Shown: in pieces, positions 293 through 64,000 of the stretch
How the letters are laid out: each line of letters starts with the position of its first letter
Numbering within the stretch: the first letter of the stretch is position 1
Source of the DNA: Phallusia mammillata
Lineage: Eukaryota
Length of the DNA: 64,000 nucleotides
Reading direction: 5' to 3'
Assembly: GCA_965637545.1 (NCBI GenBank)
Contig: OZ281495.1
Span: forward strand, 9,982,001 to 10,046,000
Notes under the pieces: generated by a model
Database searches by the model: none
What the model saw: the letters and a program-made list of their open reading frames with translations, nothing else
What the model was told of the DNA's origin: nothing
Position numbers and translations under genes: made by a program

Positions 293-3200
293 TTACGAGA
301 ACTCCCTGGGAGCATCGGGAACGCTGATGGCTTTCTGCGGCCTTTTGACGTTTTCTGTACGCTGATTGTTGTTTACGAGTCGTCCACTCTCTGGACCGGA
401 CGCATGCCTCGCTCTCTGCATGCCGTTGGTATTGTTCGGTGGCTGACTGCCAAAACTCGTGGGAGGGTGAGGTTTGACTGGGGATGATGGCGTTATCTAT
501 GCATAAAGCGGTACGTTACATATTGAGTTGTTTTGATAGCGCATTTTTTCGCAGACTGTTTTTTGTGCTTATTTTGTTTACCAAGCCAAAATACAGCTGG
601 ACTAACGCAATGCAGAGCAAACAAAAACAGCGACAAATACTTACATTGAACCTCTTAATTGACCTTTTGTGCAAACGGTGTCGCACATAACATAAAAAGG
701 GGCTCGAGTATAATGAATTCCTTTTTACAAGAAGTCTCATTTAAAGTATCACGAAAATTCATTATTGTTTAATTGAAGAAACCAAACTTACTTGTTTATT
801 TGAGTTTCCACTTATATGTCGAGCTCTCTCCTGCTGATTTGGATAAACCGGTTCGCGGTCATCAGCTCCTATAGGCGACGTGGGGTTAGACTTGCTGGGG
901 CTGTGCCCATCCGGAGTCCCGGCCCCTACTGACCCCGACAAGCGCTGCTGACCCTCGAGACTGCGCTGGGTCGGAAGACGCTTATTTTTTTGCGCCGACG
1001 GAAAAGTCGTATTGCCCTTGTTGATGTACGAGGGGCTGTAAGGGGGTTCCCCAAACGATGGTGGGGTTTCGTGTTGTGGAGTCCCGGGGTTCGACCTGGG
1101 TATGTTCAGCCTCAAGTTAAGACGGTTCGGGGTCATCAAATCCATAGGGGGACGAGAGAAGGCCGAATACCCATTGTTACCCATAGGGATTTCCCCGCGA
1201 GGACCCTGGCCACCGGCAGATATTTGAGGCGGGATGTTCAGCTTTAGTTTTTCCCTCATGTTGTTTTGGGGACCCGGGGGGCGCGTGGGCGCTTCATTCA
1301 TGGGTCCCATAAGCGCTTCTTGTTCATCTACTACCGCTAGGTAACCCCTCTGTTGGGGCAATTGTACGTGAGTTGGGATTGATCCAGCGGCTGATTCACT
1401 CACGTTGCGCTTTCGCTGAGGCTGGAAGTTTTTCTGTTGCGGAGCTGTGGAAAGAGACCTTTTGTTTAAGGTTTCATTTCGTACAAAGACGAACTTTTGA
1501 AAGTAAAAAGATTTCAATCTATATTTAACTAAAATTGTGAAGCGTGTTGTGAAAATATGTTTCTTGTCAAGTGTAAATAACAATCTACATGCTTACCCAT
1601 TGACGGTTCGTCGTTAAACACCTCCGTCGGCATCAGCTGATAATTTTGACCACCTTTCAGCAACTGACGCCTATCCAGACTGTGCGTCATGCGTTTATCG
1701 TATCTTCCACTCGCTTGTGGTACAGACGGCGCCGCTTGGGTCCAAGTGGGCACGACGCCGTGCGGTTGTGGGCCTTGCGGGCTCATAACCACCATCGGAT
1801 GAGTATATACCGACTGTTGATTGGTGGTGCGAACTTGCTGTAGCGAATGTTGACGTCCTATACTGCGCATGTTAGGCCTATTGTGGCCCATTGTAGTAGC
1901 CCTTGTGTTGTCCATGCTGTAGGTTCTGTTGAAAGCTTTCTGGCCCTGAAACGACATCGCACGGACCGGCGGGACGCGTTGCTGGTGACCGTTAGGTGGG
2001 AGCATTTGGTCACCATCTGTAGGTGTGGAGGACTGCAGGTCATCACCATCATGTCCCCTTGTCGTAAAGACTAAGCCCATGTCGTCGATGCTCCGTTTCT
2101 GTAAAACGTTTTGTAATGTTGTGTTTTTGTTGTTTTTAATTATTTCCAGGTAATGATTAGTGCAGTGGTTCCCAACCAGGGGGAATTTTGTAATTTGTAA
2201 GCGGGAATTTGTGTCACGATATTAATCTTTTACTGGTTGTCTGTGCTATTTGTTATTGCTGCATTTTCCATATGTGAGCTGAGAAAAAAAATGTTCTAAA
2301 TTTATGGGGGGAAATTAGATTTGAATATCGACTAAAAGGGTGCACAGGACAAAAAAGGTTGGGAACCACTGGATTAATGTAAAAAAACAAGTTATTTCCA
2401 TTTTAAAGTTTTTCGTTTTAACCAAACCCCTGAATTCACTTGTCATTAATCGAGTTAAAATATTGCTTTCCCAGAACAGTTAATATGTCACAAAAAGTCA
2501 GATATGTAGTAAATTGTGTATGTACCGATGGACTTAATTGCATGTCATCAGCATGTTCTGGTGCTGAACTTGTGGAAGGATGAGAGTTTCTCATTTTCCT
2601 TTTCCCGCCGTTGCTGCTTGTTGTGGACAAATGCTGAAAACAAAATTTTCTGTTATGCACAGGGTGCAGGTCCGAATGTTCAGTTTTACATAATTTGATC
2701 ATTCACTCTTCCTCGAACACTGGTACCATAAATAAACGCAGTCATACGGCTGATAAATTTACATGATAACGTCTGTGGTGTAGTATCACACGCTTATGTT
2801 GCCTTTATTTTTAACGCCTTTGATATATAAATACAATATATCTTTGTTAACCACTGACGATGGCCTTAAGTACTTGTCCAAACCGCTGACAAAACAAAGT
2901 CGTCTTTATCTACAGCCAGTGTCGGTAGCCAATGACAAGCTATGTTTTTCTCATGTCACATTAGCTTGAAAACTTGGGTTTGTCAACATTATTAGGTGCC
3001 AAAAAATCCTTACATGTTTTGACATCCCGTCTCTTCCGTTGGGGCTTTCGGGGCTCAGAAGTGGTTCTCCGTTTGTTGCGAAGACAGCGTCCTCCTCGCT
3101 TCTGTTTCCCATACTCGACTCGGTCAGGTTGCGTTTTCTTCTGCTCTCGTCGTGAACCGAATTACGATTTCCAATTTGCCTTTCAAAACAGAACAAAAAG

Positions 3201-6200
3201 CGTTAATTTTAAAATGTATAATCAAGTGAAATTTGATGTTGCTTCCTAAAATTTGAAAAATCACTTTATGTTGGATCTATTTGAATAAGGATAGATGATG
3301 CTATTTAGGCAAAGTGTGTATTCTTCTAACATAGAACTGACTGGACTTGTTTAAAGGTTTCACTGTCCATTGGTTTTATTATTTTCGAATTAATAAAGGC
3401 AAAAAGTCATGATTATTTCAAGGCCTGCTCTTGATGGTTTTTAATCCATTACCACAACTATTTTTAACCACTTTTGCGTTGTTACGTACCTGTTATTCGA
3501 GTTGCTACTGGAGCTTGCATTTCGGCCTTTTCGTGATTGGTTGGAATCTCTCCTACTGTCACGTGACTGGTTCTTTTTGGCTGAACCCTGTTGATAAAGT
3601 CAAAATTGCTTGTAATGAGACCAAATTTACAACGAAATAGTAGTTTTAACCATGCCAATACAGAAATCACCCTGTAATCATTTTTGAAACCTTTAATCAT
3701 AAAATTGCTGAAGTTTTTTTCTGTTTGTTTCCAGAATACTTAGAAACTTTAAAAATGCTAATTCTCACATTTTGCAGTTTTCCCTTTTTCACTTCTTTCG
3801 CCTTTTTCACCTTCTTCTCTTTCGGCGGGTATTTCCCGGATTTCTCTCTCTTGCAACGAAGGGCGATGAGAAACAAAGCGAAGAGAATCACTGCTAGAAG
3901 AAACCCGACAGCCAATCCAATGCCACCGGGAAGAGCCCAATTGTTTCCAGCTGCCACTAGGGTCGCATTGTTCTCTGTTACGTAAGTAGGTTCCGGTTTT
4001 GACACAAGAGTCTCGTTCTTTACAACCGTATTATTTGTTTCCTCTGCAGGCACTTCGGGTGCAACACCTGCTAAAAGTGCACGCTTCAGGTAATAAAGGT
4101 TCAGCGCAGACTTTGGTAAAACAGGGTGAAACGTACGTGGCTGACCGACGACCGGTTGAATGCAGATCCCTGGGTTATCTACGGGGTCAGGAGTCCTTCC
4201 TGCGTTGGCAGTGGTGAGAGATACGCATTGACCATCACGCCAAACACAGTGCGGATCACCAGCATCGAGGCAAGTCCTGAAACAATGTATGGACACGATT
4301 TGTAGGCTCTGTACATGATTATCTATATTTATCAAGTGTACGTTTTTGAATAGTTTAATTACACTTTCCTTCTCCAAAAAGAAATAAACGCAGCGTTACA
4401 CAAAAACATGTAAAAAAGCTAAACTGAATAATAATTTGTACAAAACCACTCGTAGTTTATTGGTGTGTAGTAAGTTACTTAAGATACGTTAGTTATTTAT
4501 GTTTATCTTGAATACTTATTTGAGCAATTTGAAACGACACGTTTTTTGACCAAAAAGGAATAAGTCAGCGTAACAAGGCTTAAAAGGCGAAACGAAAGCA
4601 TAAATTGCACAAAAACCTTTGTTGGTGTACATCACTAAACAACTGCCTACAAATACAATGTGACAGCGTCATTAAGTCAGCGGTACAGTTAAGATATCTT
4701 GTGTCTGAGTATGGGTCCATTCCACTGTGTCTGTTCTAGCGGTTCACTTACTTGCGACAAGTGGTTGTTAATGGACAGAACGGAGCGAACACGATGCAGC
4801 TTTTGAACTGAACAAAGACCTTGCCGCTATCCTTGTCTACTTGTAGTTTTTGAACGGATCTAAAAGAACAAAATGTTTTAAACAGAAATATTAAACGTCG
4901 GCAATAAAAGATTATTAGCCACAGCAGCGGTTCTCAAACTAGGTCCGCGGTATCTTAGGATCAAATAAAGCAATGTACGTGATGTCAGATTGTGCTATTG
5001 AATAAGTGTAAATCAACGCAGAATTTGGGATGAACTGCCTTCATTGCTGTCTTTCATTCCATCAAAATTAATAAAATGCAAAAAAAACATAACAAAAAAA
5101 TTCTTCGGGTCCAATCCTGATGTTATTTGTCTTTTCCGGAATGAAATAATATGAAAAGTTTGAAAAACACTACAAAATATGATTCCGTTTTGGCGTTGTT
5201 GTTTAAAACAAGGTAAACCTCGCCAGTCATATATGCTGATCCGAATATTGACTAAGTTCAACTTGAATTAACTTCAACTTCAAAAAAGGTGAAACCAAGT
5301 ACAGTGCTTTCGTTTCATTACACAATTGACCATTTTCCTGTTTCGAAGTCCCACCTGTCGGTATCGCCACACTTTTGCTCGTTAAACACCGTCCGCTCCT
5401 CCAGTAACTCAAATTTCCCGCTTCTCGAATCTCCGACTATCTTTAACAACTTTCCTTCTTGGGTACCAGCGTAAATTACAGTCTTGGATTTGTCGATAAC
5501 AAACGAATCAACATCGATCGTTGTGAGGAAGGACCTTTGTGTCAAACAGTCAAAATGAGCATTAGAAAAAACACAAAAATCGTGGTTTAGTTTAAAGTCC
5601 AATGTATAGGTTACAAAATCTCATTCAAACAACCTTTAGCTTACCCGGCGTTTGCTCGTGTAAAGACAGGAGCAGAGTTGTGCCTTCCAACATCCACCGT
5701 TTGGCGTTTCATGTCCCATGCATTTACGCTTTTCGCCATGAGAGGGTGTTTGCGAACGAAATCCAGACGAGAGTCGCTTGCCTCTGCCCGACTACCAGAA
5801 CCGCAACTAAATAACAAAACAAATTGTTGTTAGAAAGCTTTGAATTGCATTTTCTGATTCTCTTAGCTAAGTTTATACATGGCGCAAACATTTTTCATTT
5901 CACACAACAGTTTATCCAAGAAACCTTGAAATGTTTGCTCCTCAGACTTTAACCGGGCCTATTGAACTTAATTTTTCTCATTTATTCCACTACTTTTTGT
6001 ATCGTTAGTTTTATAGTCAAATGTGCCAATTCGTCAACACAGAGCGCGCTTAATCTTGGAGGGACAGACCCCGTAAATCCCCCCACAGTTACTTTGATAA
6101 AAAAAACACCACAAATTCACTCACCTAGCGGGATGAGGGAATGGATAATCGGGTTGCACGTGCCAGTATTGTCGAGAATCATCGACAAATTTTTCCAAAA

Positions 6201-12200: not shown

Positions 12201-15200
12201 CGTGTGGTTAGGGGCTTGAATGCGTGTGACCTTATTATCCATGTAAAGTACGCATTTAACCAACAATACAGCCCCAGTAAAATTGGTAATTCTCTAAATG
12301 ATTTCTGCTGCTTTTCGAAAAATAAAAACAAGGTCACGGATTATAAAACATTGACAAGTCACCGAAGAGCCAACGTACTTAAAAAGATCAGGTTTAGACA
12401 GTTGAAAATGATAAATATATAGTCGAAACTTGATGATTTACTCAAAAATATTGATATTTCTGTTCCTTGTGGCTTAACAAATTCCCAAACCAAGCGTCCA
12501 GCAACTTACTTCTAAGTGTTTGCATTGAGCATAGAAAGAGTTTGATCCACATGTTATCGCTTTTCTGCTGTGTGGAATCTTCGGATTTGGTCGCACAAAT
12601 ATCTTCACGTAATTGTGACATTTTTCCGTCGATTTTCCCTTTTTGCCACACAGCTCTATGGTGACGTTGTCAGATGGCCAACGAAAAACCTAAGTGCATG
12701 AATACTCAAAATCAATATGTGGACAGCTATAACAAGAAGGATATGCACATGTTAATGTAGCAAATTCTTTTGTAACACAAACAAGCGGCCTGGAAAATGT
12801 TGTTTTGTGATTTATTTATCTAATTTGCAAGATTGAAATGCTAAGTAACATGACAAAGAGTTTAGTCGCTTTATTCGAAATTTGTCTTTCAAGATACGCC
12901 CTTACCCTGGTGAAGGGGTCTCGTATGGGACTCAAAACGTCGAATATTTATAATAAAAACTGCTGGAAGGGCATTACTCGTTTATAAAGAGTTTGAGAGT
13001 ATGACCCTTTCAATTTAAAACCGTTTGTAAAGCTTCGTTATAAATTTTCTGCGTTGTTTGTAATGTTTCAAAAGTTCTGCAACAGTGCAGGAACAGGAAC
13101 AGATTTTTGCAAAGCATGCAACAGACTGTTGAACACATAAAACCGCAGATCCTTCATAATTCAAACTCCATTCGGTGTAAACCGATTGAATTCGGCCGAA
13201 CTACAACGAAGCCGATGATTTTCAGCAAAAGGTCCCACTTTAAATCTAATTGCCAGATACGGATGACCGACAAAGTAGCAATTAGAGGTAAACGCGCTCA
13301 GCACTCTCTGTCGCTTTACCATAGCGATCACGTTCGAATTTAATTGATCCGCTAGTTCAACCACCAGGAATAAAGAAAAACAGCGACCACATAGGTGAGG
13401 CACCTGTTTTGCGGAGTTAAAGTTTAAAAACAAAGTTTATACCAGGTGAAGATTATCTAAACATGCCCTCGCGTTATAAACACTGTTTATAAAAACTGTT
13501 GACTTCGTCAAGATCAATCTGTTTAAGGTTCTTAGCCACAACGCAGATGGCAGATGTAAAGGCTTTACTGACCTGTTTATAGGGGATTTCTCCAGTTGCG
13601 TTCGGAGGAAACATCAACAGGTCAACAAAGAAAATATTGTCCCTGTAAAAGCAAAAAATATTAATAATACAACATTGGTAAACTTTAATTTTACGGTATA
13701 GTGCCCAATGTTCTATTATGTGATGTCCAGCTTAATGTGCCTGAACGTTGGGTTTGTTCTTGATCTTTCTGCACATGCGGAATTTAAAAATCAGTAAGAT
13801 AATTTATTTACAAAAAAACACTAATAAGAGCGGCAGTTACCATACATTTGTTGAAATTAAAGCCATGCGTGCAAAAATGCATATCGTCTGCAAAAACTAA
13901 CCCATCTCGCGGGCGACACACGACACGCGTCACGTTACATGCGACAAGCGTCAGACAAATGCAATAAAATGCAGTTGTTCGACCTGAATTGTTGGACAAA
14001 ATACAGAAGTAATCCACCAAAAACCTTCGCTAAGCCGCAACGCCACGAGACGTAAACAAACCAAATTGGGTCAAGCTCAACGAATCACGTGTTAAAGCGT
14101 GCCGTGTGCAAAACCCGGCAACAAAGAAGCTGTTTTGTGCTAAAAAATTTGTGTCAAACAGCACTTCTGCTGACCTATACTGCAAAGACTTTTGGGTACA
14201 GGAAAACAAATTTGGTTCATTTGTTTTCAACAATACGTTCCAATAAAACAGAAAACAAATAATTTATATCGGTTGCACATAAGTCGTTGTCAAATTGAAG
14301 GCCTAAAAACCAACCTAATGGTTTCCAAAAAGTAAAGTTTAAAATGATTACCAAAATTTATTTCCAGACAGAAGTAATGCGTCTGGCACCAAAGTCAACC
14401 GAACATTGATCTGTCAACAGTTCAACAAGGGTCATTCGGGAATGACATTTAGTTACCCCAGAGGAAACGAAAGTTGTAAAAGGAAACCTTTTTGGGCCCA
14501 AAACGTCCGGACGCCGTCTGCCTGCTGCAAGTGAAGCGTCCAACCACTCCTTTGTTGTTCACAAACAGGTTTTGTGACGTTGTAGAGACGTAACAAACCC
14601 TCGAATGACTGACGATTGACACGTTGGGATAACCCGTTATAACACTGTTCTTGCCACGTTTCTCAATGCTTGCGTGTTTTTGTTTTGTTTTTTAGCTAAG
14701 CATTGTGCTGACAGGCACCCTGATGCTACGGATTAGTAGATTAGGTAGCCGGTGACAGCTGGACAAATATTGAGAGATCTGTTCATTACAGGTAAAAAAA
14801 CCAATGCAATTACATAATGTAACTGAACATCATAAATGAAACCATCAATTTTAGTTCCTATTTCACTGCCCTTTAGACAGGGTAGTACTACGCAATCTCT
14901 AATAAAACTTAAGGAAATGCTGACGTTTGGTGCTTTTAGGGTCAGGGCAAGAATTTGTTTTAACAATAACATTATTTTTAATCTTAGATACCCTTTTTGG
15001 CAACTAGAAAGGCCATTTCACATGTAAAACAGTCATGTCTATAAATTACACAACCGATGTCAAGGAGCCGCGAACCGCATTTAGGTCGTATCGGGCCATT
15101 TCACATCGAACACACCCAGCAGCGGTTTTGCCACACAGAAAATTTATAAATACCACACAGTCGCGTTACGGTAAATCAAATTTCAAAGAAACAAGCTTGC

Positions 15201-29498: not shown

Positions 29499-29570
29499 TC
29501 CTCGTTAGTATAGTGGTAAGTATCCCCGCCTGTCACGCGGGAGACCGGGGTTCGATTCCCCGACGGGGAG
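29499..29570 (+). tRNA. trnD-GTC: tRNA-Asp (anticodon GTC)
   Basis: 72-nt TCCTCGTTAGTATAGTGGTAAGTATCCCCGCCTGTCACGCGGGAGACCGGGGTTCGATTCCCCGACGGGGAG; canonical cloverleaf, anticodon GTC at 29532-29534, intact A and B boxes. Confidence 0.98.
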
Positions 29571-31815: not shown

Positions 31816-34800
31816 CTATCGTTTGTTTCGTCTGTGATCACGTTCTGTGTAATCGCCGTGTTCTTGTCGGCGCCCGCGGGGAAATCTATAAAATACCAAA
31901 AGTTATTCAAATCACTAAATAATCACCACGAAATGTCGCTAAACAACTTACCGACGATGCCATTAACCGACATTTAACTGTAACCATACTGTATTGGGGA
32001 AAGGTTCGTCCATGGATTAGTGCTAAAACCAGAGTCTTACTGATGTTTCAACCCGTTAATTTACTTTTTGGCGCCCACAATGGTGGATCCGGGGATAAAC
32101 TATTGATTTGTATGTTGTTGTGTGCTAGATATGTCATTTACCAACGTAAATGCAGTGAAACTTCACCGATTGTGTGTTAAGATCTAAACACTTTCTAAAT
32201 TCTGTGGGTTTATGAAAATATTATGTGTCAAAAAGCGTGGAAACTGTTTTGCTTATAGCAATAAATGGTGTCGCCTGTTACTTACTGAAGTGTAACGTTA
32301 ATGTTTTTAGCTTTTCTTTCTTATCCATCAATTTTAACTGTAACGGAAAATATAACAAAACTCATTTAGCACCTGTTAACAAAAATTTACCTATTTGTTT
32401 TTCGAGCGTAGTTGCTGTTTTTTTCTTGTCGTGGCCCGTGGGGACATTGCCCCCTCTTGTGGCTAAAAGCACCGCAGTTGTAACACTGCTGGCCTCGACC
32501 GTCGCCTCTGTACAATAATATTCCAGGCATTAAAAAGTATCACCAGGCCAGTTAGTGAAACAAAAATATCACAAGACCTGTCTCCGCGCGCATGTGAGCC
32601 AGAGGTCTTGGGTTCAGAACACATCGCTGGCGGCGTGATTGCAAACTCTTCTTCGTCTTCAATCCAGTCGCACTCGCGCTCCCCCAAGTGGCTGATTGTT
32701 GATGATGATTCTGCACGACACAAGTGTCCAATCAAAAAGCTTTCAGGTGAGTTTTGCAAGTTTCTATGCATTAACTTGGGTAGTTTACTTTCTGTACAAG
32801 AGTTACTGGGCACACGATTAGATTAAATAAATTGTAGGTAGTTACCAAATTTAGGCACAAAAGAAGTGCTTTATAACCAGCCTTTAACACAGTGATTCTC
32901 AAACTATGAGCCGTGGCACAGTAATGCGCCGGCAAAGATTTTCAAGTGTGCCGCGAAATATTCGATATTTAAATGTGAAAAAAACTCTTTTTTTGTTTGT
33001 CATGAAAGCAATCTTTTTTGCGTGGTCGGGCTGAAAAGATTGTCGCAAAAAGAAAATTAAGTTTGTTGATGCACTGCATGCCTGCAAAGTTTGAGAACCA
33101 CTACTCTAACAATTCAATGTTTTTTTTTTCATATACTTTTCATTTACTTTTCATATACGTCTTATTTCATAGCTTACCGGTTCCTGTGTCGGATTTGTTG
33201 CTGATCGTTCGTTTTATCGTCAAATCTTGCATCTTTCCTTCAGACTTCGATCGTTTTAGAATGATTGGAATGTTTTCTACACAAACATCGTGGGACAAAA
33301 CGTTGTGCAAAGAATACAAGGTTAGCAGTTGAGGTCCTTATCTCATGGGTAGAGCTACTACAATAGGAACCCATAACAGACAAAATTTGCACCGAACATG
33401 CCGATAAATGGCGTAAAGAACACAGCTTTTCAAATTAACAGTGAGACTGGGTTAGAGTAAGGAACTAAGTTTATAAGTTGGGTTTATCGCAAATCTTGTT
33501 GCGTTAGAAGAATTTCGTATTCCATACAATTTGCTGTGTTTACAAGGTGGTATTGCTGTGTTTACAATGTGCAATTGATAAAATAGTTATAACCTACCAC
33601 TGAGGACGGTGTTGGATTGGCCAGGCATTTTGCGATAGGAATATCGGCTTAGCTCTGGAAGAGAAGCTGGTGAATGGCGAGTGAGCTCTGCCGACCCGGA
33701 TTGATTGGGACTCTCTTCTGTTAGAGTTGTAACAATTTTAAACGGTCACAAAAAAACAACCACTCTTTAAGCAGTTTTATAAGTGTCTTAAAATTGTTAC
33801 CTTTTCCTGGAGGCGACATGGCAGTACCAGGGGGTTGAATCTAAACACAAAATTATTGTCTTGTGGGGAAAATGGCAATTCGTTTTTTTTACTTCTGCTA
33901 TGTACCTTGGAAGGATCGCCGGCTGACGAAACAGACACAACGATGTTATCGTTTTTGGCAACAACTTGTCTCCACTGTGATTGGGCGCGATGGTTGTTAA
34001 TGATATCTAGCACTCCCTAAAATTAATTTGGTTTTAGTAGAAAGATAAGCGAGATTTTTGGCTGACATAAAGCTTCAAAGGTATGCTCCTTGAGTAGGAG
34101 TGGATTTGTAAAATAAAAATTATGTAAGGAGATATAGGCGTTTGGATTTTTTTTGTGAATTTTTTATTGATATAATTTTTTAAACAAATATTGTTGTATT
34201 AAAACAGATTTGGTGATGCATTGGCCTTTTAGCCTGTTACTACCAGCAAACTGTTGAGTGTCGTAATTTTGGCCAATACTTTGTCACCAGATGCACTGAT
34301 ACGACCTCAAAAGTCAAAACAGTACTGTCTGCAGCTTACTTATTATGTAAAGGCTTTATGTTTTATAAGCATAACAAACTAATAAACTTTTTGGTATTCC
34401 TATCAAACTAATTTTCTGTTATTTCTATGCATATCAAAGTCCGGTTACCTTGAGTTCAGGAAAGTTTTGCAGATAAACCGGCATCTGTGGTCCCAGTCGT
34501 TGTACAAGTTGATTAATATTGAAAGGAATGCAGTATCGACAAAATTCGTTCCTCAAATCTGGAAATCTTTGCATCTGTTTGCAGTGGTTAAGCAAAATTA
34601 ACGATTAGTTTTGAAAGGAGGTAATTTTTAGGGGGTAATTACGTAACGTCATAATTCGTTAAGTTTTTTTGAATGGCGGTAAATGAAATTCATCTCAGGG
34701 ATAACAATAACAATAACAAAAAACGGTGGAATAACAAAAGCAAACAGTAAGAAAGAGATTAAAAATCACCTCATAGTCGATGCACTGGTAGTATATAGGT

Positions 34801-46800: not shown

Positions 46801-47503
46801 ATGCATGTTTGGCAAATGAGTACACCATTGTTCTCACTGTCATTTTCTGCAAACAATGTTTCGATGTAAGCTGCAGACAGTGTGCACTGCTTTGACCTAA
46901 GTTTTTATCAGTACAGCTAGTGACAAGACATTGTAACTATACGCAATTTTGCTTCCAGGTGACCGCTAATTGCCGATCTTCCTTTTTTGATCGTTATTCT
47001 AAATAGACGATAATGGGTCAATGACTTGGCGGCCAATGATTGGCCTTTTGTTGACCTGTCATGTAGTTACTTGTTGTGTAATTTTCTTTGTTACTGTTAT
47101 ATGCAATTGTGACAAATAAACCATTGATTGATTGATATACACCGGACAATAAGACTAATGTTTTGTCACTAGCTGCTGCATTAATGAGACCGTAAAAGTT
47201 TAACATAGTACAATGTCTGCAGCCGGGTGATCAATTATTAGTGGATGCTTTTATAATGTTGCTATGTTTAAGATTCACTGCACATGGAAAGCTCAAAAAA
47301 GCTACATTATCTTATAATTACGATACTTTTCACTTCTAAAAAACGAAAATGGTAGTTTGTCATAAAAAGATTGATTTAAACAACAATTAGATTTAACAAA
47401 CTTGTCACTTGCCATTTTGGATGTCCACACACGAAAAGCAAATGTGAGTAGGGACACCTTCATCACAAAATCGACACACTTGTTTCGGAAGTAACTCTTC
47501 CAT
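40851..47503 (-). CDS. B-box / coiled-coil / extended Tudor protein (RNF17/Qin-like architecture), ~521 aa modelled; C-terminus uncertain
   Basis: Exons: 47413-47503, 46696-46846, 46311-46379, 46027-46210, 45847-45936, 45211-45364, 44444-44636, 42703-42868, 41888-42007, 41399-41530, 41227-41314, 41067-41101, 40851-40943 (1566 nt; needs two GC donors). B-box-1 pattern CRFC-x8-CFSC-x16-CQTC-x4-H-x7-H. Coiled coil DQLTAKEKEINNEIQDQVQKL. eTudor-like segments VWICHALEYYLLQ, IAVKYKEQTKMHRCFI, VQLQLVDNWEN, FPYFCMNVIV, WLVDLTVGDVSL. Confidence 0.72.
42891..43932. mobile_element. 1.04-kb non-autonomous hAT element (TAGGG-type TIR)
   Basis: TIR TAGGGTTGG(G)CA...TGCCCAACCCTA; perfect TSD aattgaat; subterminal palindromic TTGACCGGTCAA motifs at both ends; no transposase ORF seen. 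Confidence 0.92.
44756..45081. mobile_element. hAT (Buster/Charlie-like) MITE
   Basis: TIR CAGTGGTGTCCAAA...TTTGCACACCCCTG; TSD cagtaggg/cagtagtg. Confidence 0.82.
45501..45787. mobile_element. hAT (Buster/Charlie-like) MITE, degenerate
   Basis: TIR CAGTGATTTTGAATC...GGTTGAAAAACACTG; TSD gagtagat/gtgtagat. Confidence 0.75.
46866..47223. mobile_element. Family-B element with two inverted, decayed hammerhead TIRs
   Basis: Minus strand 46869-46918: AGCTGTA-CTGATAA-..GGTC-AAAG-CAGTGCACACT-GTC-TGCAGCT. Plus strand 47175-47223: GCTGCA-TTAATGA-GACC..-AACATAGTACAAT-GTC-TGCAGC. TIRs extend into TGTCACTAGCTG. Located in intron 1 of the B-box/Tudor gene. Confidence 0.75.
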
Positions 47504-62798: not shown

Positions 62799-63491
62799 TC
62801 ATCCATCCCCAGGTGGAGGAGTGTACCATCCGTTTTTTTCATGAATCTGAACTAGTTTGTGGAAGGATTGTTGTGCTCGCGACAAGCTATACGATGACTG
62901 TAAGACAAAAGCATTTAGTTTTCACAGCTAACACTTTTCCTGGAAATATCCACTTAATGAAAGCTATTCACTAAGTGGAGCTAATTTGATGCTGTTCGAA
63001 CCGACAGAATGGAAAAGAAACTGTCCACAACGTCTAACCACTAAGCAGATGACACTTTTTATGTACACAATGAATGGTAAAACAGATGTTGTAATGCCTA
63101 TAAATATCCATTGTTTTTACATAGTTTTATCACTCTATTGGTGTGGTTTGTAGTCGCACAGGCTTGTTATTACTGTGTTTGTTTGTTTTTTGTGTTACAG
63201 ATGATTTTGTTGCTTTCAAGAGAAAATAAGTACCATTACCCTGATGAAGGTGCTCACATAGGACGTCGAAACGTTAGTTATTTAAAATAAAACTACTGGA
63301 TGAGCAAAATTTGTTTGTGTAACACTTTTTGGCAAGGTATACTTACACTAGGAGCACTAAACTCAATTTTGGCTTTGCCTTTAACAAGTGTTGCCATGAT
63401 TTGCATAATAAGGGACTCGATGGAATAAGCACTGCTCCATCCCTGCTTGGTTAACAGTTCCATACAGATAGCTCCCCCAGCAAGCACAAAC
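62799..63491 (-). CDS. UBE2Q: Ubiquitin-conjugating enzyme E2 Q, last two coding exons (gene continues beyond the window)
   Basis: Exons 63347-63491 ([44 protein letters not shown]) and 62799-62897 ([32 protein letters not shown]), both diagnostic of the UBE2Q C-terminus. Confidence 0.96.
63238..63300 (+). ncRNA. Penelope-type minimal type-I hammerhead (family A), best-preserved copy
   Basis: ACC-CTGATGA-AG-GTGCTC acat AGGACGTC-GAAA-C-GTT-AGT plus tail AATAAAACTACTGGA; intact CUGAUGA and GAAA; antisense in the last UBE2Q intron. Confidence 0.65.
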
Positions 63492-63534
63492 CTACAACAG
63501 AAAGTAGTAAAACTTAAAAAGAGGAATAATATTA

Positions 63535-63586
63535 AGCTGCAGACAATGTACACTGTTTCGTTCTATAAGGTCTCATCAGTGCAGCT
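63535..63586 (-). ncRNA. Type-I hammerhead ribozyme, sense to the UBE2Q pre-mRNA
   Basis: AGCUGCA-CUGAUGA-G-ACCUUAUAGAA-C-GAAA-CAGUG-UA-CAUU-GUC-UGCAGCU. Stem I is 7 perfect bp, stem III is 6 bp, the core is intact and the GUC site lies at 63544-63542. Stem II is reduced to the G10.1-C11.1 pair plus a weak C-G/U-A. Confidence 0.8.
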
Positions 63587-63694
63587 GGTGATGAGAGATC
63601 GAGCGTATGAGCTAATGTAGCCCCTTATGGCAATCCAGTTTGTTGGGAGAATCAAGTTAAAAAGCCATACCCTCACCAACCTGTTCAATGCCAA

Positions 63695-63753
63695 AAGTTG
63701 CACTGATGAGAACCTGCCTTGTAGGTCGAAACAGTGTGCACATTCTGCAGCTT
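63695..63753 (+). ncRNA. Type-I hammerhead ribozyme, opposite polarity
   Basis: AAGUUGCA-CUGAUGA-G-A-ACCUGC-CUU-GUAGGU-C-GAAA-CAGUGUGCACA-UUC-UGCAGCUU. Stem I is 8 bp, stem II is 7 bp and the core is intact. Stem III is damaged (palindrome UGUGCACA, 2 nt shorter than consensus). Confidence 0.75.
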
Positions 63754-64000
63754 ACAATGCATTGACTCCATGCTTTTATAAAAGAATAATATTACACATA
63801 AATCCAGTAAACTGCATAAATTGTTTAATTATGTAGAGATTGTAAATCCTAAGTGTAAAAAATGTCCAGACTCCAGATACTTGCACAATCTGGTTAAATT
63901 CATAAAATAGCTTGAAAATTTGGTGAAACATTAACCAGATTTTTGTGTTTTTGTTAGACTTTTAACATCACATAAAAGTAAATTTACATATATATTCCAG

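Follow-up and report, generated by a model that had tools for sequence, protein, structure and literature searches.

Penelope-like elements (PLEs) leave insertions of a recognisable form. Craig et al. (PMC8557442) describe partial tandems, an adjacent inverted copy truncated at its 5' end, and a tail of 30–40 bp that is often present at one end only. Arkhipova et al. (PMC3846280) report a 31-bp tail, target duplications of 8–10 bp, a usual head-to-head arrangement, and mobilisation in trans mediated by the pseudo-LTRs. For the inversion they favour self-priming on an antisense template, which differs from the mechanism inferred below. According to Frangieh et al. (PMC11167929), both strands of the target are cut and extended by a Poseidon protein, which has a preference for AT-rich sites and uses two start sites that bound the tail; in vitro it prefers uncut RNA, ribozyme cleavage being dispensable.

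Hammerhead ribozymes connect these elements to a second group. In Schistosoma, hammerhead pairs lying 100–700 bp apart on opposite strands have been reported as truncated PLEs (PMC4209133, Cervera and de la Peña, 2014). The same authors defined the non-LTR retrozymes, for which they regard PLEs as a strong candidate helper (PMC7229834, Cervera and de la Peña, 2020). A review of 2020 states that there is no conserved animal-retrozyme motif from which the helper could be deduced (PMC7761336). A preprint of 2026 argues for a PLE origin from co-occurrence and homology, treats the mechanisms as unresolved, and suggests that tandems arise through local amplification (Li, Clavereau and Pollet, bioRxiv 10.64898/2026.07.22.740005). 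In the literature searched, which lay outside subscription journals and bioRxiv supplements, no report of inverted, tailed retrozyme insertions was found, and none of a footprint that ties a retrozyme to a helper of Penelope/Poseidon type.

The locus considered here lies in a window of 64,000 nt (the whole stretch of DNA that was analysed) from Phallusia mammillata, whose genome of 240 Mb has genes with introns. The first-pass annotation had described an element of about 222 bp with long terminal inverted repeats, each containing a type I hammerhead, one per strand. The inverted arms (63533–63586 and 63696–63754) are indeed present, but they are not fixed terminal repeats, and a tail extends the element to about 63783 (Table 1). 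The two hammerhead motifs are as annotated, on opposite strands, with CUGAUGA, GAAA and NUH in place and the predicted cut sites facing outward. The element is an aged insertion, consisting of two 5'-truncated pieces of a repeating unit joined head to head, with one tail and an 11-nt duplication of the target. It is intronic in a UBE2Q-like gene on the minus strand, before the exon at 63347..63491 and about 40 nt from the acceptor. It is highly probable that the family to which it belongs is a new one of non-LTR retrozymes inserted with a Penelope signature; the annotated feature is real and wider than first reported.

Table 1. Positions, in window coordinates, of the parts of the insertion, its host exon and related copies.
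Feature	Position	Strand	Remarks
Left target-site duplication copy	63524..63534	+	11 nt, exact; final 2 nt also match the element end
Left arm, 164 nt of the 282-nt unit	63533..63696	-	Covers about -154 to +9, counted from the hammerhead cut site; short, tail-less end; ~80% identity to the young natural unit in L077
Minus type I hammerhead motif	63533..63586	-	Core 63579-63573; stem II 63572-63560, disrupted by two substitutions; GAAA 63559-63556; stem III and GUC 63555-63542; predicted cut 63542/63541
Head-to-head joint of the arms	63696..63696	.	1 letter common to both arms
Right arm with plus hammerhead motif	63696..63754	+	About -44 to +9; core 63703-63709; stem II 63710-63727 with 5-nt insertion; GAAA 63728-63731; stem III (damaged) and UUC 63732-63745; cut predicted after 63745
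Tail, next ~25-29 nt of the unit	63755..63783	+	Right end only; last base uncertain, 63779-63783
Right target-site duplication copy	63784..63794	+	11 nt, direct repeat of 63524..63534
Host exon, UBE2Q-like ubiquitin-conjugating enzyme gene	63347..63491	-	UQ_con E 1.4e-4; upstream exon matches UBE2Q1, E 1.9e-21
Further decayed family copies	about 19590; 34204-34346; 46867-47250		

As annotated, at least three further copies occur in the window, all of them decayed. The copy at 46867-47250 is an older two-arm member with a right-hand tail and an interior that can no longer be aligned. Other features of the window are a tRNA gene at 29499-29570 (+), and exons at 762-4395 (-), apparently for the C-terminal part of a membrane protein of semaphorin type. 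There is also a lone CUGAUGA...GAAA pair at 36046-36002 (-), with unconvincing stems I and III, which failed a structure-aware scan.

To judge by alignment and predicted folding, both ribozymes of the window copy are decayed. The weak stem II of the minus copy and the damaged stem III of the plus copy had been recognised from the letters, and alignment to younger natural copies shows the substitutions. The minus motif has two that break stem II, together with two changes in stem III; the plus motif has substitutions in stem III and, in addition, an insertion of 5 nt in stem II. For both motifs the minimum-energy fold is not the hammerhead. The natural motif of the young tandem L077 has all the core letters and three stems, and the hammerhead is its own minimum-energy fold (-17.9 kcal/mol). 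A check with the Rfam Hammerhead_1 model, proposed at the time, came out negative: neither window motif was called at E up to 1, and even the young one reaches 22.8 bits, short of the gathering score of 34.

The repeating unit of the family is 282 nt long in 13 of the 20 steps measured, and has a GC content of 49.6%. It is non-coding, the longest ATG-started frame in three tandem loci being 55 aa over both strands. The same three loci contain 11 hammerhead cores in the sense direction and none in the antisense direction. The suspicion that this is an amplified family was right: the 47-nt core has 231 exact matches in the genome, and the reversed-pattern control none. With the window element as query, there were 1442 first-look candidates in the genome, of which 40 were scored. 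Tandem arrays had also been suggested as a check, and head-to-tail units do occur, with 34 exact unit-to-unit steps at 27 loci and at most four in a row; no long arrays were seen among the exact matches for such steps. Several retrozyme criteria are seen in the family: each unit carries a canonical type I hammerhead, although that of the window copy has decayed, tandems are in the 150–450 bp range, there is no coding frame, and target duplications are longer than 4 bp. In contigs of three presumed-RNA runs the whole unit is covered and the flanks of L077 little, although the large run covers the flanks throughout, and strand, level and circles are invisible in such data.

The commonest letter in older loci was compared, column by column, with that of the young unit, using 20 older loci chosen on the non-ribozyme part; 10 of the 30 fetched had been removed as repeats of earlier loci or near-duplicates. 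The two agree in all 55 ribozyme columns and differ in 20 of the 116 columns upstream and in 4 of the 24 columns of the tail. In the same comparison, individual copies are decayed about equally across all regions of the unit. Since the ribozyme columns are unchanged between the sets while single copies have decayed evenly, it would appear that source copies kept the ribozyme and that inserted copies drift. The apparent maintenance of the ribozyme in these source copies is a matter of conservation, not of covariation; the stems have no covariation support because the motif is invariant between subfamilies.

The form of the insertions bears on how they arose. A set of 95 was mapped on the natural L077 tandem: 30, including the window element, were collected by likeness to that element (and are biased to two arms), and 65 by one exact core. 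Eight loci that repeat others were left out, and L126 and L128 are apparently one duplicated site. Two arms are present in 59 of the 95 (20/30 in the likeness set and 39/65 in the exact-core set), always with their 3' ends outward and never tail to tail. A further 35 have a single arm, and one has two arms in the same direction. In six loci scored as one- or short-armed (L100, L104, L114, L129, L053 and L116), a second arm of a few to about 39 letters can be seen by eye, running from either start site, which fits two primings per insertion. At G000:C3:4162290-5090183 there are four near-identical short two-arm copies with an equal spacing of 120 nt, probably a segmental duplication, and only one was counted.

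In 48 of the 59 two-arm copies, a short end, which stops +3 to +18 beyond the cut site, is paired with a long one, which stops at +33 to +50. None has both ends long and none both short, and 11 have one end outside both classes. These ends were taken from BLAST and a strict walk; local-alignment ends ran into the flanks and were used for the duplication test only. The strict walk could be measured in 31 of the 39 young two-arm copies, with a modal short end of +9 and long ends of +35 to +39 in 24. In the same 31 copies the median spacing of the two stops is 29 nt, and the apparent duplication is 12–14 nt in 26, counting letters that could belong to target or element. The search for target-site duplications recommended with the annotation was rewarded: the window copy has its 11-nt direct repeat, and a duplication of at least 9 nt flanks 43 of the 59 two-arm insertions, whereas 20 swaps of the flanks gave 0.15 on average. 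The duplicated targets are AT-rich (23% GC).

In other respects the copies vary. Arms range from 23 to 862 nt and inserts from 111 to 1008 nt, apart from one longer case with a nested transposon. At L076:3272-4537 a young retrozyme insertion is split by an element of about 1.27 kb, which has short inverted repeats at its termini, shows what looks like an 8-bp duplication, and resembles a DNA transposon of hAT type. At the joint, 0–3 letters are common to both arms in 32 of the 59 copies, and the inversion point varies from copy to copy. The two arms of one insertion differ by 0.042 per site, compared with 0.080 in shuffled pairs (0/500); as age and subfamily are confounded here, this shows only that both arms would come from the same subfamily.

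An inverted, 5'-truncated copy placed head to head, together with a one-sided tail, is the signature of Penelope-like insertion. The first-pass annotation knew of no named family with this architecture, but the inverted truncated copy, the optional tail of 30–40 bp and the target duplication are all described for PLEs (PMC8557442, PMC3846280). Its second suggestion, a non-autonomous element built from inverted pseudo-LTRs of PLE type, was right in kind.

Coding PLEs are present in the same genome. At least four families have unbroken frames with reverse transcriptase (RT) and GIY-YIG domains (L187:395-2782, L083:2444-4978, L078:1808-4726 and L084:1895-4771), those of L187, L083 and L078 being 796, 845 and 973 aa long. 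In L078 and L084 the two domains are separated by a cysteine linker, which the frames of L083 and L187 lack. The linker is a feature of Neptune and Nematis (PMC8557442), and because they lack it L083 and L187 are taken as putative members of the Penelope/Poseidon type.

The L187 family also leaves short pairs of opposite polarity. Sixteen stretches were fetched, of which 11 had both ends in the family, four were diverged relatives and one was a direct tandem. All 11 inverted copies have one short and one long end, 29–40 nt apart, and nine of the 11 have duplications of 13–15 nt. The spacing of the stops is about 32 nt in L187, 36–39 nt in the L083 type, and about 83–88 nt in two Neptune-type families, the last value being based on few copies. 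A spacing of 29 nt, as in the retrozyme, is in keeping with the genome's Penelope/Poseidon-type families but not with the Neptune-type pair that was measured. At the long stop the retrozyme and L187 have the same letters, CAT|TGA, and at the short stop TA|T, though these are few letters, and in both the tail region folds as a stem-loop; the shared stop letters and stem-loop are suggestive only. Whereas the retrozyme has its short stop at +9, that of the coding families is found tens of bases beyond the ribozyme.

The helper of the retrozyme is likely to be a Penelope/Poseidon-type enzyme acting in trans. As the tail of a second Poseidon-type family is of similar length (about 36–39 nt), the footprint names a type and not one family. 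The unit has only core words in common with the eight pseudo-LTR stretches compared, which sample the families and are not a full list; as these eight show no homology to the unit, the helper is typed rather than identified. With these provisos, we are confident that the window element is a non-LTR retrozyme, present as an aged, target-duplicated insertion that a Penelope/Poseidon-type reverse transcriptase-endonuclease likely copied in trans.

Some retrozyme copies have stumps of other PLE families close by. In the window, 63234-63312 (+) and 12866-12972 are stumps of another hammerhead-bearing pseudo-LTR, 75–76% like the end of the Penelope/Poseidon-type family L092/L187; a 14-nt part of this stump has 322 exact matches in the genome. 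A possible clustering of retrozyme copies beside the stumps of one PLE family was attributed to chance, as apart from the window there was one other case in 121 loci, for 322 matches of the motif. Short inverted stumps of other PLE families adjoin or lie near retrozyme copies at L011:1765-1880, L014:1733-1978, L144:1622-1754 and L122:1468-1556, some of them apparently inserted into the ends.

A mechanism may be proposed from the footprint. Tandem copies would be transcribed, and the hammerhead would excise 282-nt monomers, which are likely circularised. By analogy with the in vitro work on the Poseidon protein, both strands of an AT-rich site would then be nicked about 12 nt apart, and one cDNA primed at each nick. 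The cDNAs would start at about +9 and about +38 past the cut site, which is seen in the footprint as a 29-nt tail at exactly one end. Both would stop at variable points and their far ends would be joined, with mostly 0–3 letters in common, giving the head-to-head inversion that is likewise seen; a long run would leave tandem units inside one arm. Finally, a transcript across the insertion is predicted to form a long hairpin that masks both ribozymes, and a copy such as that in the window would decay. Enforcing the hammerhead costs 39–43 kcal/mol in the window copy and about 76 kcal/mol in the young two-arm copy L013, but 0.2 kcal/mol in a tandem unit, and it is this cost in two-arm copies that leads to the prediction of masking in read-through transcripts.

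The nature of the template follows in part from the positions of the starts. Both lie just behind the cut site, so that a cut linear monomer would give only 9 or 38 nt; arms reach 862 nt, and one is about 1240 nt, so that the template should be an uncut multimer or a circle. At L168, four successive units carry an allele that is found in 2 of 64 in that column, and three more arms have rare alleles across their passes. On the other side, the passes of the L119 tandem differ at 18 of 79 sites, which is a poor fit to a single circular template. A further point against the proposed mechanism is the in vitro preference of the Poseidon protein for uncut RNA, with no need for cleavage by the ribozyme (PMC11167929). 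The rare alleles, together with the lack of long arrays among exact matches, lean towards a circle, although local duplication at a later time, or a source that had been homogenised, would give the same picture.

The main competing explanation does without a circle. The unit would be the pseudo-LTR of a coding PLE that has escaped detection because it is rare, decayed or in an assembly gap, and the short copies would be 5'-truncated stumps and internally deleted derivatives made from tandem transcripts that are linear and uncut. Equally short two-polarity stumps are indeed left by coding families of this genome, Xenopus retrozymes are often homologous to pseudo-LTRs (bioRxiv 10.64898/2026.07.22.740005), and the passes at L119 differ. 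Long copies encoding RT/GIY-YIG had been proposed as something to look for, and no coding element with the unit as its pseudo-LTR was found in a partial search, comprising a GIY-YIG scan in which 150 of 434 candidates were scored and about 30 loci that were read; the loci for coding partners were 16 larger stretches around matches and 15 loci. The partial scope of this search leaves room for such a partner. However, in copies both young and old, any sequence that goes on past the tail continues the 282-nt unit, and in none of the 95 insertions does an arm continue into a long frame in the flanks examined. The retrozyme motif is canonical, with no bulge before stem II and a 5-bp stem III, unlike 17 other motifs near coding PLEs, and a pattern for related canonical hammerheads returned only two variants of the family. 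The rare alleles common to the four units of L168, and to the passes of three more arms, are as expected of rolling copying on one circle. We regard a hidden coding partner as unlikely, though it deserves more weight than any of the alternatives that follow.

A retrozyme mobilised by a LINE, with the inversions produced by twin priming of L1 type, is improbable. L1 twin priming also yields a head-to-head inversion, with a duplication of 10–15 nt, and this outcome resembles that of the retrozyme. On one linear RNA, however, it gives non-overlapping pieces with a variable inner start, whereas here the arms cover the same stretch of the unit and begin at two fixed starts 29 nt apart, like a coding PLE of this genome. 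LINEs have been named as possible retrozyme helpers (PMC7229834), but the 3' end of the unit has no poly(A) or simple repeat.

The first-pass annotation had also considered an endogenised ambisense viroid-like circular RNA, with one hammerhead per polarity and symmetric rolling-circle replication. The window copy does have a motif on each strand, and for its 222-nt stretch 63533-63754 the fold is a rod of great stability (-99.3 kcal/mol; z -9.8; none of 200 shuffles was as stable). But the antisense strand of the repeating unit has no core (11 against 0), and the rod arises because the two arms are the same sequence, its length and joint differing from copy to copy as the inversion point varies. 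The palindrome that was to cap the rod on joining the ends exists by construction only, the required left G being a T in the sequence. The ends are unequal, with one tail, target duplications flank the insertion, and the rod is predicted to mask both ribozymes. A viroid-like origin is consequently very improbable, and the two-polarity layout is best read as a probable integration scar, that is, a by-product of insertion. Weakest of all, and hardly credible, is a DNA-transposon MITE, with a chance hammerhead in its terminal inverted repeats: the inverted ends do start with TA and short copies number in the hundreds, but the ends are unequal, arm length varies, duplications are of 12–14 nt, 35 of 95 copies are single-armed, and head-to-tail units occur.

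Returning to the retrozyme copied by a PLE enzyme, we give about even chances to a more specific proposal. A retrozyme with a canonical hammerhead and no detectable homology to any pseudo-LTR would hijack a Penelope/Poseidon-type enzyme: directly behind its cut site it would imitate the two points, about 30 nt apart, at which that enzyme starts copying, and a circular RNA would be copied from both target nicks. If this is true, the helper of an animal retrozyme could be read from the insertion footprint, and tandems of retrozymes would originate inside single insertions and not by later local amplification.

The opposite-hammerhead layout is a known by-product of Penelope-type insertion, and so does not indicate a new viroid-like agent. 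The value of the family lies in the link, namely a young retrozyme family of hundreds of copies with the full PLE footprint. Because unbroken candidate frames and near-identical young units are found in one genome, the identity of the helper and copying from a circle are directly testable.

The family may be compared with four known systems. Like Avsunviroidae and other ambisense viroid-like circles, it has ribozyme motifs on both strands, and a single copy folds as a rod, but the unit here is of single polarity, the second motif is a mirror copy made at each insertion, and the length is not fixed. With the minimal pairs of Schistosoma mansoni (PMC4209133) it shares two hammerheads on opposite strands and a layout of truncated-PLE type; those pairs, as described there, are minimal motifs of the coding PLE Cercyon, whereas here the motif is canonical and the unit protein-free. 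The metazoan non-LTR retrozymes, as described in PMC7229834 and bioRxiv 10.64898/2026.07.22.740005, are closer. Like them, the family has a non-coding unit in the 150–450 bp range, one canonical type I hammerhead, tandems, a GC content just under 50% (here 49.6%), duplications longer than 4 bp, and coexisting coding PLEs with other hammerheads. It differs in its predominance of head-to-head pairs with a one-sided tail, which the available text of those papers does not report, in its short arrays (at most four exact steps in the assembly), and in a stem III that suffices for the predicted monomeric fold; it is also a family known from sequence alone. From the EN+ PLEs of Penelope/Poseidon type (PMC3846280, PMC8557442, PMC11167929) it is set apart by a unit that has no RT or GIY-YIG frame, by the lack of likeness to the eight pseudo-LTR stretches compared, and by a first start 9 nt past the cut. 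With these same elements, as they are described there, it shares partial tandems, an inverted 5'-truncated copy placed head to head, a tail of some 30 nt at a single end, targets that are AT-rich and duplicated, and a hammerhead near the 3' end.
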